Sequence record: PV295200.1
Strand: one strand, 5' to 3'
Length of the DNA stretch: 64,000 nt
Source: Escherichia phage vB_Eco_BCPEco_001
Position 1 is the first letter of the stretch. Each line of letters starts with the position of its first letter. Made by a program: the position numbers and the translations under genes. The notes beneath the pieces were generated by a model. The model saw nothing but the letters and a program-made list of their open reading frames with translations. It made no database searches and was not told the DNA's origin. Shown in pieces: positions 255 through 62,937 of this stretch.

Positions 255-2765
<2,511 letters not shown>

Positions 2766-50105: not shown

Positions 50106-50579
50106 ATGTTATTGACTGGCAAATTATATAAAGAAGAAAAACAGAAATTTTATGATGCACAAAACGGTAAATGCTTAATTTGCCAACGTGAATTAAATCC
50201 TGATGTTCAAGCTAATCACCTCGATCATGACCATGAATTAAATGGACCAAAAGCAGGAAAGGTACGTGGATTGCTTTGTAATCTCTGCAATGCTGCAGAA
50301 GGTCAAATGAAGCACAAATTTAATCGTTCTGGCTTAAAGGGACAAGGTGTTGATTATCTTGAATGGTTAGAAAATTTACTTACTTACTTAAAATCCGATT
50401 ACACCCAAAATAATATTCACCCTAACTTTGTTGGAGATAAATCAAAGGAATTTTCTCGTTTAGGAAAAGAGGAAATGATGGCTGAGATGCTTCAAAGAGG
50501 ATTTGAATATAATGAATCTGACACTAAAACACAATTAATAGCTTCATTTAAGAAGCAGCTTAGAAAGAGTTTAAAATGA
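50106..50579 (+). CDS. 49: endonuclease VII (Holliday junction resolvase)
   Basis: 157 aa; zinc motif CLICQRELNPDVQANHLDHDHELNG...CNLCN. Confidence 0.9.
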   Translation: MLLTGKLYKEEKQKFYDAQNGKCLICQRELNPDVQANHLDHDHELNGPKAGKVRGLLCNLCNAAEGQMKHKFNRSGLKGQGVDYLEWLENLLTYLKSDYTQNNIHPNFVGDKSKEFSRLGKEEMMAEMLQRGFEYNESDTKTQLIASFKKQLRKSLK

Positions 50580-52393
50580 CAATTGAAAAAGAAATTGAAG
50601 GATTGATTCATAAAACTAATAAAGACCTTTTGAACGAGAATGCTAATAAAGATTCTCGTGTTTTTCCAACTCAACGGGACCTTATGGCTGGTATTGTGTC
50701 TAAGCACATTGCCAAAAATATGGTCCCGTCTTTTATTATGAAAGCGCATGAAAGCGGAATTATTCATTTCCATGATATTGATTATTCCCCTGCTCTTCCA
50801 TTTACTAATTGCTGTTTAGTAGATTTAAAAGGAATGCTTGAGAACGGATTTAAGCTCGGTAATGCACAGATTGAAACTCCTAAATCAATCGGTGTTGCTA
50901 CTGCAATTATGGCACAAATTACTGCGCAAGTTGCTTCCCATCAATATGGCGGAACGACTTTTGCGAATGTAGATAAAGTACTTTCTCCTTATGTTAAACG
51001 CACCTATGCAAAACATATCGAGGACGCAGAAAAATGGCAAATCGCTGATGCACTGAATTATGCTCAATCTAAAACAGAAAAAGATGTATACGATGCATTC
51101 CAAGCTTATGAATATGAAGTAAATACTCTCTTTAGTTCAAACGGACAAACGCCTTTTGTAACAATTACATTTGGTACGGGAACTGACTGGACTGAACGAA
51201 TGATTCAGAAAGCAATTCTGAAAAATCGTATTAAAGGTCTTGGTCGTGATGGGATAACTCCTATTTTCCCTAAGCTTGTTATGTTTGTTGAAGAAGGTGT
51301 TAATCTTTATAAAGACGATCCGAACTATGATATTAAGCAGCTTGCTCTAGAGTGTGCAAGCAAAAGAATGTATCCTGATATTATTTCAGCTAAGAACAAT
51401 AAAGCTATCACTGGTTCATCTATTCCTGTTTCTCCAATGGGTTGCCGTAGTTTCTTGAGCGTATGGAAAGATTCGACCGGTAATGAAATTCTTGATGGAC
51501 GTAATAATCTTGGTGTTGTAACACTGAATCTTCCTCGCATCGCGTTAGATTCTTATATTGGAACACAGTTCAATGAACAGAAATTTGTTGAATTATTCAA
51601 TGAACGAATGGATTTATGTTTTGAAGCTTTGATGTGTAGAATTAGTTCCTTAAAAGGAGTTAAAGCGACTGTTGCTCCTATTCTTTACCAAGAAGGTGCA
51701 TTCGGGGTTCGTCTTAAACCTGATGACGATATAATTGAGTTATTTAAAAATGGTAGAAGTTCAGTGTCCCTAGGATACATTGGTATTCACGAATTGAATA
51801 TTCTTGTCGGTCGTGATATTGGACGAGAAATTTTAACTAAAATGAATGCTCATCTTAAACAGTGGACTGAAAGAACCGGATTTGCTTTTAGTTTATATTC
51901 GACTCCTGCTGAAAACCTTTGTTATCGCTTCTGTAAACTCGATACAGAAAAATATGGAAGTGTAAAAGATGTTACCGATAAAGGTTGGTACACTAACAGT
52001 TTCCATGTTTCAGTAGAAGAAAATATTACTCCGTTTGAAAAGATTTCCCGCGAAGCACCATATCATTTCATTGCGACAGGTGGTCACATTTCTTATGTTG
52101 AACTTCCTGATATGAAAAATAACTTAAAAGGTCTTGAGGCCGTGTGGGATTATGCTGCACAACATTTAGATTATTTTGGTGTTAATATGCCAGTAGATAA
52201 ATGTTTTACATGCGGAAGTACCCATGAAATGACTCCTACTGAAAACGGATTTGTTTGTTCTATTTGTGGAGAAACTGATCCTAAAAAGATGAATACCATA
52301 AGAAGAACATGCGGCTATCTTGGAACTCCTAGCGTTGTTCCATGGAATTTAGGTAAAATGAAAGAAATGGTAAAACGAGTAAAACATGCATAG
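50576..52393 (+). CDS. nrdD: anaerobic ribonucleoside-triphosphate reductase (class III), uninterrupted
   Basis: 605 aa continuous ORF; C-terminal glycyl radical motif RRTCGYLG and Cys zinc ribbon CFTCGS...CSICG. Confidence 0.9.
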   Translation: MTIEKEIEGLIHKTNKDLLNENANKDSRVFPTQRDLMAGIVSKHIAKNMVPSFIMKAHESGIIHFHDIDYSPALPFTNCCLVDLKGMLENGFKLGNAQIETPKSIGVATAIMAQITAQVASHQYGGTTFANVDKVLSPYVKRTYAKHIEDAEKWQIADALNYAQSKTEKDVYDAFQAYEYEVNTLFSSNGQTPFVTITFGTGTDWTERMIQKAILKNRIKGLGRDGITPIFPKLVMFVEEGVNLYKDDPNYDIKQLALECASKRMYPDIISAKNNKAITGSSIPVSPMGCRSFLSVWKDSTGNEILDGRNNLGVVTLNLPRIALDSYIGTQFNEQKFVELFNERMDLCFEALMCRISSLKGVKATVAPILYQEGAFGVRLKPDDDIIELFKNGRSSVSLGYIGIHELNILVGRDIGREILTKMNAHLKQWTERTGFAFSLYSTPAENLCYRFCKLDTEKYGSVKDVTDKGWYTNSFHVSVEENITPFEKISREAPYHFIATGGHISYVELPDMKNNLKGLEAVWDYAAQHLDYFGVNMPVDKCFTCGSTHEMTPTENGFVCSICGETDPKKMNTIRRTCGYLGTPSVVPWNLGKMKEMVKRVKHA

Positions 52394-52405
52394 GGTTAAA
52401 CACCA

Positions 52406-53038
52406 ATGAATTATGACAGAATCTATTCAAATCTAGTTAATTCTGCTGAACACCCATCTAAGCCCCGTCAAACTAAAGCCGGGTATGAACTTCATCATAT
52501 AATTCCAAGAAGCATGGGTGGTCCAGATGATTTAGACAACTTAGTATTTTTAACTTATAAGGCCCACTATACTGCTCATCATTTATTGGCTAAAATATAT
52601 GGTGGAAAGATGTATGATGCATATTGGATAATGAGTAATAGTAAGCATAGAAAAGTTACTTCTTCACAATACGCGTATGCAAAAGCTAAGAAATTTGAAA
52701 ATCAGCGTGGCGCAAAAAGAAGCGATAAAACTAAGAAGCTAATGAGCATAGCTAGGTCTAAAGTAACTCTTCCTGATGATTTTGGAAAAAGGATATCTGA
52801 TGGGCTAACAGGAAGAACTTTGTCTACTAGTCATAAAGAGCATATCAAAAATAGTTCTAGAAATCGCTTTAACACCAAAACGGTTATTGGCTATTCACCA
52901 GACGGAAATACAATAGAACTAACTGGAGCAACTGAAATAAGAAATGCAGGATTTTTTCATTCTGCTGTTTATAAATGTTGCAAAGGAATTCAATCTATTC
53001 ATAAGGGATATACTTGGAAATATAAAGATGAATTATGA
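52406..53038 (+). CDS. HNH homing endonuclease
   Basis: 210 aa; HNH motif ELHHIIPRSMGGPDDLDNLVFLTYKAHYTAHH; between nrdD and nrdG, overlapping the nrdG start by 11 nt. Confidence 0.7.
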   Translation: MNYDRIYSNLVNSAEHPSKPRQTKAGYELHHIIPRSMGGPDDLDNLVFLTYKAHYTAHHLLAKIYGGKMYDAYWIMSNSKHRKVTSSQYAYAKAKKFENQRGAKRSDKTKKLMSIARSKVTLPDDFGKRISDGLTGRTLSTSHKEHIKNSSRNRFNTKTVIGYSPDGNTIELTGATEIRNAGFFHSAVYKCCKGIQSIHKGYTWKYKDEL

Positions 53039-53498
53039 TAGAATATACCCGTGCTGCTTTGTTAATGGTCCTGGATGCAGGGTCGTTCTCTTCGTCACTG
53101 GATGTTTGCATAAATGCGAAGGTTGTTATAATCGTAGTACTTGGAATGCTCGTAACGGACAGTTATTCACTATGAATACCGTTAAAGAACTTGCGTCCCA
53201 TTTAAGCAAATCGTATATCCAAGGCCTTACCTTAACCGGTGGTGACCCACTTTATCCACAGAACCGAGAAGAGATTTCAAATTTAGTTTCTTGGGTTAAA
53301 GCAAGATTTCCGGAGAAAGATATCTGGTTGTGGACAGGATATAAGTTTGAAGATATTAAACAGCTAGAAATGCTTAAATATGTTGATGTTATTATTGATG
53401 GGAAGTATGAGAAAAATCTTCCGACTAAAAAGCTGTGGCGAGGATCAGATAATCAGCGACTTTGGTCAAATACCGATGGGGTGTGGAAACATGATTAA
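53028..53498 (+). CDS. nrdG: anaerobic ribonucleotide reductase activating protein (radical SAM)
   Basis: 156 aa from ATG at 53028; CxxxCxxC-type cluster GCLHKCEGCYN. Confidence 0.85.
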   Translation: MNYDRIYPCCFVNGPGCRVVLFVTGCLHKCEGCYNRSTWNARNGQLFTMNTVKELASHLSKSYIQGLTLTGGDPLYPQNREEISNLVSWVKARFPEKDIWLWTGYKFEDIKQLEMLKYVDVIIDGKYEKNLPTKKLWRGSDNQRLWSNTDGVWKHD

Positions 53499-60201: not shown

Positions 60202-60388
60202 CATTAATGATGAATTCATAGCAAACATTGATTATACCGAAGAAGATTCTAGATATGTTGGAATAATTTATATTACATCAAAAACAGCACAAGGTGTTGT
60301 TTGCATGGCTGAATTTGATGAATACTTTTTAGATTATGATGATATGATAGAATGGTCTAAAAGATACATTAAAAGGAATCTTTTGTGA
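60125..60388 (+). CDS. hypothetical protein (start uncertain; possible GTG start at 60182)
   Basis: ORF track 60125..60388; the GTG at 60182 with AAGGAT RBS reproduces the start context of the downstream HNH gene. Confidence 0.35.
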   Translation: MTHLNHYKIWLYLVLRMHTVKFSTFDINDEFIANIDYTEEDSRYVGIIYITSKTAQGVVCMAEFDEYFLDYDDMIEWSKRYIKRNLL

Positions 60389-61239
60389 AGAATTTTAAAC
60401 TTGACATTAATGATGAATTTTTAATAAAGGAATTAGTTGAAAAATTAGCGTTGAGTGAAGAAGACGCCAAGTCTTACATTAATTTTATTTCTATGAATTC
60501 AACTGTTAAAACTCCAGGTAAAACGGAAGCACACCACGTGCTTCCTAAATCAATATTTCCTGAATATTTAAAATCTACATGGAATTTAGTTAATTTAAGT
60601 CATTTTAATCATTTTAAAGCACACTTCTTATTAGCAAAAGGTAAAAATGGAAAAATGCTAAATGCTTTAAATAGAATGATGTCAGGGAAAACATATAAAA
60701 ATTTATCTTTAGCCGAAGTTGATTTAATAGCTGCTGAATATAGTTTTATAAAACAAGATGTAAGTGACACAATATCAAAAAGGCTTCAACAGTATTATTC
60801 AAATCCGCAAAATAGAAATGCTGCTAGAGAAAGGGCATTAAAATATTTTTCAGTAGCAAAAAATAGGAAAGATAACAAAGAAAGATTAAATAATTTTAAA
60901 ACAAAACAAAAAATTTCAATGGCTTCAAGGGAATGGTTTAATAACGAAGAAAACAAAATTAAACACCAAAAGGCTGTTCGTGCTGCTTTATCAAAACCTG
61001 AATATAAAATAGCTATATCAAATTCAGTAGCTGCTAGTTGGAAAAATCCGGAGATTAGAAAAGCTCATATAGCATCTAGACGAAAAGGCTATCATTGGGA
61101 TAATAAAGATAAATTGTATGAATTGTGGATATCATATAATCGTCCTAAACATGTGATGTTTAGGAAAATGTTAGTTAAGAATGGATATCCAATAGAGGCT
61201 TCATTACAGGCTTTAGTTAAAGAATTTTCTTCATTGTGA
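60385..61239 (+). CDS. HNH homing endonuclease
   Basis: 284 aa, GTG start with AAGGAA RBS; HNH motif EAHHVLPKSIFPEYLKSTWNLVNLSHFNHFKAH; Lys-rich repeated C-terminal modules; between genes 47 and 46. Confidence 0.7.
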   Translation: MKNFKLDINDEFLIKELVEKLALSEEDAKSYINFISMNSTVKTPGKTEAHHVLPKSIFPEYLKSTWNLVNLSHFNHFKAHFLLAKGKNGKMLNALNRMMSGKTYKNLSLAEVDLIAAEYSFIKQDVSDTISKRLQQYYSNPQNRNAARERALKYFSVAKNRKDNKERLNNFKTKQKISMASREWFNNEENKIKHQKAVRAALSKPEYKIAISNSVAASWKNPEIRKAHIASRRKGYHWDNKDKLYELWISYNRPKHVMFRKMLVKNGYPIEASLQALVKEFSSL

Positions 61240-61254
61240 ACAATTGGATACAAA

Positions 61255-62937
61255 ATGAAATCATTTAAACTTAATAGAGTAAAATATAAAAATATAATGT
61301 CAGTTGGTCAAAATGGAGTTGACATTCAATTAGATAAGGTTCAAAAAACTCTTATTACTGGACGAAATGGCGGTGGTAAGTCTACTATGCTAGAAGCCAT
61401 CACATTTGGGCTTTTTGGCAAGCCATTTCGTGATGTAAAGAAAGGCCAATTAATAAACAGCACAAATAAGAAAGAACTTTTAGTTGAACTGTGGATGGAA
61501 TATGATGAGAAAAAGTACTATATCAAAAGAGGACAAAAACCAAACGTTTTCGAAATCACCGTTAACGGTACACGTCTTAATGAATCTGCCAGCAGTAAAG
61601 ATTTCCAAGCAGAATTTGAACAGCTTATCGGAATGTCATATTCCAGTTTCAAGCAGATTGTTGTCCTTGGTACAGCAGGGTATACCCCTTTCATGGGTTT
61701 GTCGACCCCTGCGCGAAGAAAGCTTGTGGAAGACCTGCTTGAGGTAGGAACATTAGCTGAAATGGATAAGCTTAATAAAGCACTAATACGTGAATTAAAT
61801 TCGCAGAACCAAGTGCTTGATGTTAAAAAAGATAGTATTATCCAACAAATTAAAATATATAATGATAATGTTGAACGCCAGAAAAAATTAACTGGCGACA
61901 ACCTTACTCGTCTACAAAATATGTATGATGATTTGGCAAAAGAAGCTAGAACGCTAAAATCGGAAATAGAAGAAGCTAATGAAAGATTAGTTAATATTGT
62001 TTTAGATGAAGACCCAACTGATGCATTTAATAAAATCGGTCAAGAAGCAGTTTTAATTAAATCAAAAATTGACTCGTATAATAAAGTCATTAATATGTAT
62101 CACGAAGGTGGATTATGTCCAACCTGCTTGTCACAATTAAGTTCCGGTGATAAAGTTGTTTCTAAAATTAAAGATAAAGTTTCTGAATGTACGCATTCGT
62201 TTGAACAGCTTTCAACACACCGTGATAATTTAAAAGTTCTTGTTGATGAATACCGAGATAATATTAAAACCCAACAGTCGTTGGCAAATGATATTCGCAA
62301 TAAAAAGCAATCTCTAATCACGACAGTAGATAAAGCTAAAAAAGTTAAAGCGGCTATAGAAAAAGCATCTTCTGAGTTTATTGACCATGCTGATGAAATA
62401 GCACTGCTTCAAGAAGAACTTGATAAAATTGTTAAGACAAAAACTAATTTAGTAATGGAAAAATACCACCGAGGAATTTTGACTGATATGCTCAAAGATT
62501 CTGGTATTAAAGGTGCTATTATTAAAAAGTACATTCCATTATTTAATAAGCAGATTAACCATTATCTTAAAATAATGGAAGCGGATTATGTGTTTACATT
62601 AGATGAAGAATTTAATGAGACAATTAAATCCCGCGGTCGTGAAGATTTTAGTTATGCTTCATTTAGTGAAGGTGAAAAAGCACGAATTGATATTGCTCTT
62701 TTATTTACTTGGCGTGATATTGCTTCTATTGTATCTGGTGTTAGTATTAGTACATTAATACTCGATGAAGTGTTTGATGGGTCATTTGATGCCGAAGGTA
62801 TTAAAGGTGTAGCTAATATTATAAATTCAATGAAAAACACTAATGTTTTTATAATTTCACATAAAGACCATGACCCGCAAGAATATGGTCAGCATCTTCA
62901 AATGAAGAAAGTTGGTCGATTTACTGTAATGGTTTAA
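61255..62937 (+). CDS. 46: recombination endonuclease subunit gp46 (Rad50-like ATPase)
   Basis: 560 aa; Walker A GRNGGGKST, central coiled coil with CPTC zinc hook, signature SGGE-like FSEGEKAR, Walker B LILDEVFD. Confidence 0.9.
   Translation: MKSFKLNRVKYKNIMSVGQNGVDIQLDKVQKTLITGRNGGGKSTMLEAITFGLFGKPFRDVKKGQLINSTNKKELLVELWMEYDEKKYYIKRGQKPNVFEITVNGTRLNESASSKDFQAEFEQLIGMSYSSFKQIVVLGTAGYTPFMGLSTPARRKLVEDLLEVGTLAEMDKLNKALIRELNSQNQVLDVKKDSIIQQIKIYNDNVERQKKLTGDNLTRLQNMYDDLAKEARTLKSEIEEANERLVNIVLDEDPTDAFNKIGQEAVLIKSKIDSYNKVINMYHEGGLCPTCLSQLSSGDKVVSKIKDKVSECTHSFEQLSTHRDNLKVLVDEYRDNIKTQQSLANDIRNKKQSLITTVDKAKKVKAAIEKASSEFIDHADEIALLQEELDKIVKTKTNLVMEKYHRGILTDMLKDSGIKGAIIKKYIPLFNKQINHYLKIMEADYVFTLDEEFNETIKSRGREDFSYASFSEGEKARIDIALLFTWRDIASIVSGVSISTLILDEVFDGSFDAEGIKGVANIINSMKNTNVFIISHKDHDPQEYGQHLQMKKVGRFTVMV

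Follow-up and report, generated by a model that had tools for sequence, protein, structure and literature searches.

The homing endonuclease gene mobC of a T4-like Escherichia phage and probable capture of the nrdG start

Described systems and the nrdD/nrdG locus

T4-like phages carry free-standing homing endonuclease genes (HEGs), for which the usual description is that of intergenic cassettes lacking a promoter. We examined one of them, mobC, in a 64,000-nucleotide (nt) stretch of Escherichia phage vB_Eco_BCPEco_001 (record PV295200.1), the whole of which is called the window below. There mobC lies between nrdD, which encodes the anaerobic ribonucleotide reductase's large subunit, and nrdG, which encodes the activating enzyme. 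Comparison with related genomes makes it probable that mobC is a promoter-less Mob-type HNH cassette placed some 20 nt into the nrdG 5' end, and that it captured the start of that gene while supplying a diverged replacement 5' end. At least three Mob-type genes appear to take the initiation codon of their target.

The gene is known from T4 as mobC (ORF 55.10; ORF, open reading frame). It has been listed as intergenic, with promoters serving downstream genes stated to lie within it (PMC2988022). According to the same source mobC and the upstream ORF overlap by 24 bp, versus the 4-nt ATGA overlap of the RefSeq T4 annotation and of the sequence. T4 and the window share the gene and its locus, the 622-bp insert, and an 11-nt overlap with nrdG. 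In T4 the mobC ATG overlaps the nrdD stop codon, whereas in the window a T6-type nrdD tail and a 12-nt relic come between them. The window also differs from T4 in that its nrdD is without the I-TevII intron and nt 18-51 of its nrdG are of the PCC allele.

Mob-type genes have been found inside coding sequences before. MobA, in the topoisomerase gene 39/60, is a Mob-type HNH cassette that brings a diverged copy (homR) of the segment it displaces (bioRxiv 10.1101/2022.08.31.505936). MobA splits its target into two polypeptides, with added extensions and translational bypass, whereas at mobC the target, nrdG, remains a single intact ORF and the endonuclease takes the displaced 5' piece as its own start. 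Similarly, mobE lies inside the ribonucleotide reductase gene nrdA of Aeromonas phage Aeh1 (cited in PMC2988022). It splits the enzyme into two chains, while mobC splits nothing and its cassette replaces the 5' end. A target in two translated pieces was not found for nrdG (one 156-residue ORF) or for gene 46 (one 560-residue ORF), which is discussed below. Judged from sequence, insertions with start capture and a replacement 5' end form a variant of the MobA/homR type. No description of this design was found in the literature covered, which did not extend to Sandegren et al. 2005 (on the same locus) and Miller et al. 2003.

The nrdD/nrdG junction can alternatively be occupied by SegH, a GIY-YIG endonuclease of T6 and RB7 (Sandegren et al. 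2005, cited in PMC2988022). The segH gene resembles mobC in that a PCC-type nrdG 5' allele follows it and its stop overlaps the nrdG ATG. It belongs to another nuclease family, however, its start is not made of nrdG codons, its ATG (ATGCATAGG) is in the nrdD tail, and that tail is strongly diverged. ATGCATAGG, the segH start in both T6 and RB7, is likewise present in the T2-type nrdD tail, where it encodes M-H-R and lies 15 nt ahead of the stop. The closest precedent for the mode of spread is one-sided homing with microhomology junctions, which was shown experimentally in T4 (Parker et al. 1999, cited in PMC2988022). Long homology on one flank and a microhomology junction on the other are likewise seen at the Jiaodavirus and Tequatrovirus mobC left junctions and at CATGCATAGG in the window. 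The T4 experiments used engineered intron donors, whereas the pattern here is read from natural genomes only.

The window is a T4-like (Tequatrovirus) genome resembling Shigella phage SHFML-11. The 1051 nt around mobC, flanks included, have 100% identity to SHFML-11 and 95.2% to T4. The gene order is endonuclease VII, nrdD, mobC, nrdG. The nrdD ORF (50576..52393, + strand; 605 residues; Pfam NRDD/Gly_radical) is intron-less. The original prediction was right that it is uninterrupted, unlike T4 nrdD, which is annotated as a two-piece coding sequence holding I-TevII. The HNH ORF (52406..53038, + strand) encodes 210 residues with 99.0% amino acid identity to T4 MobC (208/210 residues identical). 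Its product scores 26.8 bits for Pfam HNH (PF01844) over residues 28-50, above the cut-off of 21.4, and matches the PHROG 655 homing endonuclease family (E = 2e-42). The predicted catalytic core (52487..52579, + strand; residues ~28-58, ELHHIIPRSMGG...N...H...H) is intact and retains all invariant alignment columns, namely E28, H30, H31, P34, G38, G39, N45, H54 and H58. By these similarities the ORF is mobC, an already known gene, as a free-standing Mob-type HEG. The downstream nrdG is a single intact ORF of 156 residues (53028..53498, + strand) that matches Pfam Fer4_12 (E = 2e-50) and also Radical_SAM. The nrdG frame is open for 84 nt 5' of its true ATG, within mobC, forming a 184-residue ORF (52944..53498). 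This longer version is annotated as nrdG in some records (e.g. Wolf_ER13); homology sets the real start at 53028.

Empty sites and the probable start capture

In the window mobC opens ATGAATTATGACAGAATCTAT (52406..52426, + strand) and nrdG opens ATGAATTATGATAGAATATAC (53028..53048, + strand). The two are identical at 18/21 nt and both encode MNYDRIY, as the original prediction had pointed out. That prediction also placed the nrdG start 620 nt downstream of the HNH start. The order holds, and the ATG-to-ATG distance is 622 nt. The 11-nt overlap it reported is present, with the HNH stop TGA (53036..53038) sitting 8 nt past the nrdG ATG. When 3 mismatches were allowed, a search of the window found the repeat at these two sites only, against 0.01 expected (100 shuffles). 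The motif MNY..[IVFLY]Y occurs 3 times in all six frames of the window, in two HNH genes and nrdG.

The nrdD/nrdG junction was compared among related genomes. Thirty-one records contain mobC, nrdD directly abuts nrdG in roughly 680, and others hold segH or a second HNH gene, referred to as PST-type. A gene that is present or absent at a fixed site among close relatives supports the homing endonuclease insertion originally proposed. The empty sites (T2, Pu-Krd-SF3 and roughly 680 more records) have ...CACCAATGA as the end of nrdD, with the nrdG ATG inside ATGA. The T4 junction is base-for-base the same as the empty site, but mobC follows, and the insert is exactly 622 bp. Since the T4 nrdD/mobC junction is the empty nrdD/nrdG junction, the mobC ATG is the old ATG of nrdG. 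The comparison with mobC-less T4-like genomes that had been suggested as a check therefore defines the empty site. The insertion point is within the nrdG ORF of genomes without the element, and in Jiaodaviruses the upstream copy of mobC agrees with the local allele over 20/20 nt. By this alignment the cassette lies inside the nrdG 5' end rather than in a true intergenic gap.

Klebsiella Jiaodaviruses provide an independent comparison. These phages have an extra small ORF 5' of nrdG, so there is no upstream homology with T4. In the HEG-less Jiaodavirus 5N, nrdG opens ATGAATTTCGACAGAATCTAC (MNF...). Wolf_ER13, Shark_ER15 and Boboto contain a 97% T4-like mobC that opens ATGAATTTCGACAGAATCTAT, identical to the 5N nrdG start at 20/21 nt overall and at 20/20 up to the junction. 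The nrdG behind the Jiaodavirus mobC, in contrast to this local upstream copy, carries the first 90 nt of T4 nrdG (Wolf_ER13 nt 1-90 = T4), and the Wolf_ER13 mobC start matches the nrdG copy in its own genome at 16-17/21 nt only. A hybrid 75-mer spanning the Jiaodavirus mobC junction was matched by 152 records and was whole in only 3 of them (Wolf_ER13, Shark_ER15, Boboto). About 121 Jiaodavirus records match it up to ORF nt 20, and 28 mobC-containing Tequatrovirus records match from just 5' of the ATG onward, barring two host-specific bases (ORF nt 8-9). The left junction of Wolf_ER13 lies within 11 shared nt, GACAGAATCTA, upstream of which there is no homology to T4.

The PST-type gene occupies the same site in 32 records and encodes 279 residues, ~32% identical to MobC. 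Its carriers include some Jiaodaviruses (Roth04, Roth77, Mexia) and 22 Tequatroviruses (Yersinia phage PST, Ec_MI-02 and others). The gene opens MNFDRIYPSDFVN|DKL... in Roth04 and MNYDRFYPCDFVN|DKL... in PST. In each genus its first 40 nt correspond to the HEG-less nrdG allele of that genus, 40/40 for Roth04 (vs 5N) and 39/40 for the Tequatrovirus PST (vs T2). The two starts differ from each other at 10/41 nt, while the gene bodies are ~85% identical. Paralogues at other loci align from residue 22-35 only. The nrdG behind the PST-type gene has the diverged PCC allele (MNYDRIYPCCFVNG) in both genera, and the PST and Roth04 gene starts match the nrdG of their own genome at 30-32/41 nt. The last codons and stop of the PST-type gene (..NEL*) are inside the first 11 nt of nrdG, like the mobC overlap. 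In Escherichia phage BF15 (locus L020, 800..1000) a one-base change within an A run disrupts the PST-type gene, with the captured nrdG start kept. The gene annotated there begins at an internal codon, and the copy is decaying.

A third case is found elsewhere in the window. An HNH gene (60385..61239, + strand; 284 residues, GTG start; tblastn match to MobC) separates 46.1 from gene 46. It opens with 18 nt (GTGAAGAATTTTAAACTT) identical to the gene 46 start of T4 and PE37 (18/18, GTG included). A cassette-borne replacement start of gene 46 (ATGAAATCATTTAAACTT, ATG; 61255..61272, + strand) matches the original at 13/18 nt. Gene 46 restarts 870 nt after the captured start, is T4-like from nt 19, and forms one ORF. 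An artificial gene 46 empty-site query gave a single ungapped match in 446/517 records.

By these alignments all three cassettes (mobC, PST-type, gene 46) lie inside their target gene, within its first 18-40 nt. The upstream repeat at mobC corresponds to the recipient's own nrdG initiation codon and first 6-7 codons, which now open the mobC frame. The downstream repeat is cassette-borne and diverged; it makes nrdG whole again, and MobC's last three codons and stop (..DEL*) are read from its first 11 nt. The originally proposed duplication of the target start is upheld by the ATG position at the empty site, the local MNF allele of Jiaodaviruses (20/20), the 40-nt PST-type capture and the gene 46 case, rather than by the evidence first offered for it.

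We propose that the cassette spreads by double-strand-break repair with long homology on the nrdG side and the captured start as the sole microhomology on the opposite side, that is, by one-sided homing. In both Wolf_ER13 (GACAGAATCTA) and the window (CATGCATAGG) the left junction is in a short shared stretch with long homology on the other flank, a pattern taken from natural genomes. The Mob N-terminus MNYx[K/R]IY happens to resemble the NrdG N-terminus MNYDR[I/Y]Y, which is probably why the mobC fusion was in register, easy and harmless. It is plausible that an insertion with a spare start keeps nrdG expressed. mobC would be translated by way of the coupling to nrdD that nrdG formerly had, and nrdG may be re-initiated after the mobC stop, 8 nt past its ATG, or be served by a promoter inside mobC. 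The late promoter consensus of T4 is TATAAATA, which TATAAATG (52970..52977, + strand) resembles. A hairpin (52946..52965) lies just 5' of this candidate embedded nrdG promoter, from which the nrdG ATG is 50 nt downstream. A sigma-70 promoter scan was at background, with 4 found vs 3.9 expected.

Over the first ~55 nt, the cassette-borne nrdG 5' end and HEG-less alleles disagree at 7-11 positions. This diverged replacement is likely an immunity allele, and it probably marks the MobC target at nrdG nt ~1-60. We therefore propose the first ~60 nt of nrdG as the candidate location of that target. Phage U5 and Shigella phage ESh24 are HEG-less and have an ordinary nrdD/nrdG ATGA junction, yet their nrdG 5' allele is PCC-like. 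Their allele could be either the natural source of the cassette-borne allele or the footprint of a clean loss of the endonuclease gene.

The proposed design would account for expression without signals of the cassette's own and for why clean loss is hard. It would show how cassettes can cross phage genera with one-sided homology. Start capture would also explain why annotation pipelines are inconsistent in placing the starts of nrdG and of such HNH genes.

Mob-family N-termini and alternative explanations

The 18/21 match by itself proves little because the start MNYx[K/R]IY is common across the Mob family. An exhaustive profile-free protein search identified 12,897 Mob-type HNH family representatives at E <= 0.001; it was used in place of a word-indexed search, which gave 7 relatives only. 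N-terminus statistics were taken from the 155 best matches that begin with Met. The pattern M-x-[Y/H]-x-x-x-[Y/H] fits 116/155 of these, and among the 116 F3 occurs in 0 and D4 in about 1. Most family matches align from residue 1, and M1, Y3, Y7 and L10 are invariant in a small alignment. The N-terminal consensus of the family is MNYx[K/R]IY. Residues 3-13 form a helix in an AlphaFold model of MobC that was built from 8 sequences and is of low confidence (predicted local distance difference test, pLDDT, 64.6). The NrdG N-terminus is native to its own family, as 91/120 homologues begin MNY and the commonest start is MNYDRYY, bacteria included.

The original prediction had cautioned that the same start in HNH genes elsewhere would make the match a family feature. 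This was largely borne out, with 17-18/21 nt at unrelated loci, and the idea of a duplicated start is rescued by the independent comparisons above.

Several points weigh against start capture by mobC. The captured segment is only ~20 nt long and coincides with the conserved N-terminus of the family, where MNY opens 86/155 of the best matches and where I6 is found in 77, Y7 in 114 and K/R5 in 87 of the 116 pattern-fitting relatives. P0074, encoded between baseplate genes, begins MNYDRIY and matches the window nrdG start at 18/21 nt, and the HNH gene that starts at window position 1839 on the - strand matches it at 17/21. The exact first 20 nt of mobC occur in no HEG-less Tequatrovirus, the best match being 88/91. 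Slopekvirus orthologues of MobC (44-46% identical; Miro and metagenome contig L009) lie 5' of nrdG with a spacer of their own and a MNYQKIY or MNYHKIY start, and from these sequences start capture is not universal in the MobC lineage. The translational coupling proposed above is presumptive. Finally, MobC activity and target are listed as not determined (PMC2988022).

Alternatively, the likeness could be purely a family feature combined with coincidence, mobC having inserted with its native start exactly between the nrdD stop and the nrdG start, with both families beginning MNYxRIY in AT-rich codon usage. The family consensus, the ancient NrdG start, the HNH genes at other loci that reach 17-18/21 nt, and the Slopekvirus orthologue that keeps a consensus start and its own spacer all speak for such a coincidence. 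We consider it unlikely, however, since it leaves unexplained the MNF start of the Jiaodavirus mobC (20/20 local), the rare D4, the location of the mobC ATG in the very ATGA that holds the nrdG ATG of empty sites, and the captures of 40 nt and 18 nt made by two further HNH genes, in which the family motif plays no part. In addition, the sole non-HNH gene in the window with the motif is the neighbor of mobC. A family feature alone is set aside on the Jiaodavirus, PST-type and gene 46 comparisons.

Gene conversion after insertion, in which the nearby nrdG start partly overwrote mobC's own MNYxKIY start (D4 and R5, or F3 in Jiaodaviruses), seems quite improbable. The two copies are 622 nt apart and alike enough to pair, recombination in T4-like phages is intense, and the window nrdG start is itself a patchwork (nt 12 T4-like, nt 18-51 PCC-like). 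The upstream copy of Wolf_ER13, however, fits the HEG-less Jiaodavirus allele and not the nrdG of the same genome (16-17/21), so that the donor for conversion is absent from that genome. The PST and Roth04 starts behave similarly, with 30-32/41 to their own nrdG vs 39-40/40 to the HEG-less allele. Transposon-like target-site duplication, in which fill-in of a staggered cut made at the nrdG start left two recipient copies, would fit an insert flanked by direct repeats and is scarcely credible otherwise. The copies are non-identical (18/21 here, 30-32/41 in the PST type), the repeat length varies with the cassette (about 20, 40 and 18 nt), and between genera it is the downstream copy that is carried along in the cassette, the upstream one being local. 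Capture of the nrdG start together with a cassette-borne replacement is the explanation that we prefer.

A more speculative extension concerns the family motif. The MNYx[K/R]IY of the Mob family may be a fossil of an ancient capture of an NrdG start (MNYDR[Y/I]Y), with a founder in which the opening codons of nrdG were joined in frame to an endonuclease, as the PST-type and gene 46 cassettes are fused to their targets today. We regard this as a long shot. If true, it would fit the family's preference for ribonucleotide reductase genes.

Other endonuclease loci and the mosaic history of the site

Another HNH gene in the window (1027..1839, - strand) encodes 270 residues beginning MNYTKIY... and lies between two neck-protein genes, PHROG head-tail adaptor and head closure, which we take to be T4 gp13 and gp14. 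Its ATG overlaps the upstream stop (ATGA) and its own stop is 1 nt before the next ATG. Start capture was not seen for this gene in the window.

The Slopekvirus locus is variable. The Miro mobC orthologue start matches the window nrdG start at 17/21 nt. In Slopekvirus Klebsiella phage Earwig_ER32 (480..640) only the last ~58 nt of the MobC orthologue are left, fused to the upstream gene as a deletion remnant. Most Slopekviruses (KP15) have an unrelated 175-residue ORF 5' of nrdG, and their nrdG start differs from the Miro allele at 7/21 nt. Scans of IMG/VR with the MobC protein and with a degenerate mobC-start pattern yielded nothing useful.

The junctions of the window, T4, T6, T2 and Pu-Krd-SF3 were compared to trace the history of the nrdD tail. 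Block identities to T6, T4 and T2 indicate that the last ~80 nt of the window nrdD, up to the TAG, are of the T6 type associated with segH. A relic of the T2/T4-type tail (ATGCATAGGGTTAAACACCAATGA, MHRVKHQ*; 52386..52409, + strand) follows, and this relic accounts for the 12-nt spacer between nrdD and mobC. Its 15 nt of T2/T4 type are joined to the T6-type tail at the 10-nt microhomology CATGCATAGG, and the TGA of the 7-codon relic ORF overlaps the mobC ATG. In Escherichia phage FL18 (Mosigvirus, locus L017, 1909..3400) an ORF 5' of segH carries a homing endonuclease annotation and has the T6-type nrdD tail at its end; the annotation contains no full nrdD. The FL18 nrdD may be largely replaced or misannotated.

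The window nrdG is also a mosaic. By informative sites and block identities it is T4-like at nt 12, has at nt 18-51 the PCC allele common to segH and PST-type cassettes, and is T4-like again from nt 55 on. Further downstream, nt ~90-330 (window 53117..53357) of both T4 and window nrdG show near-identity to Jiaodavirus 5N, many blocks being 30/30, but only ~50% identity to T2 and T6. This segment looks like a long cross-genus co-conversion tract adjoining mobC. Of the first 20 nt of mobC, nt 1-9 resemble T-even phages and nt 10-20 resemble Jiaodaviruses. Because of the mosaic structure of the mobC start and of nrdG, the cassette was probably assembled in a Jiaodavirus-like genome and later moved.

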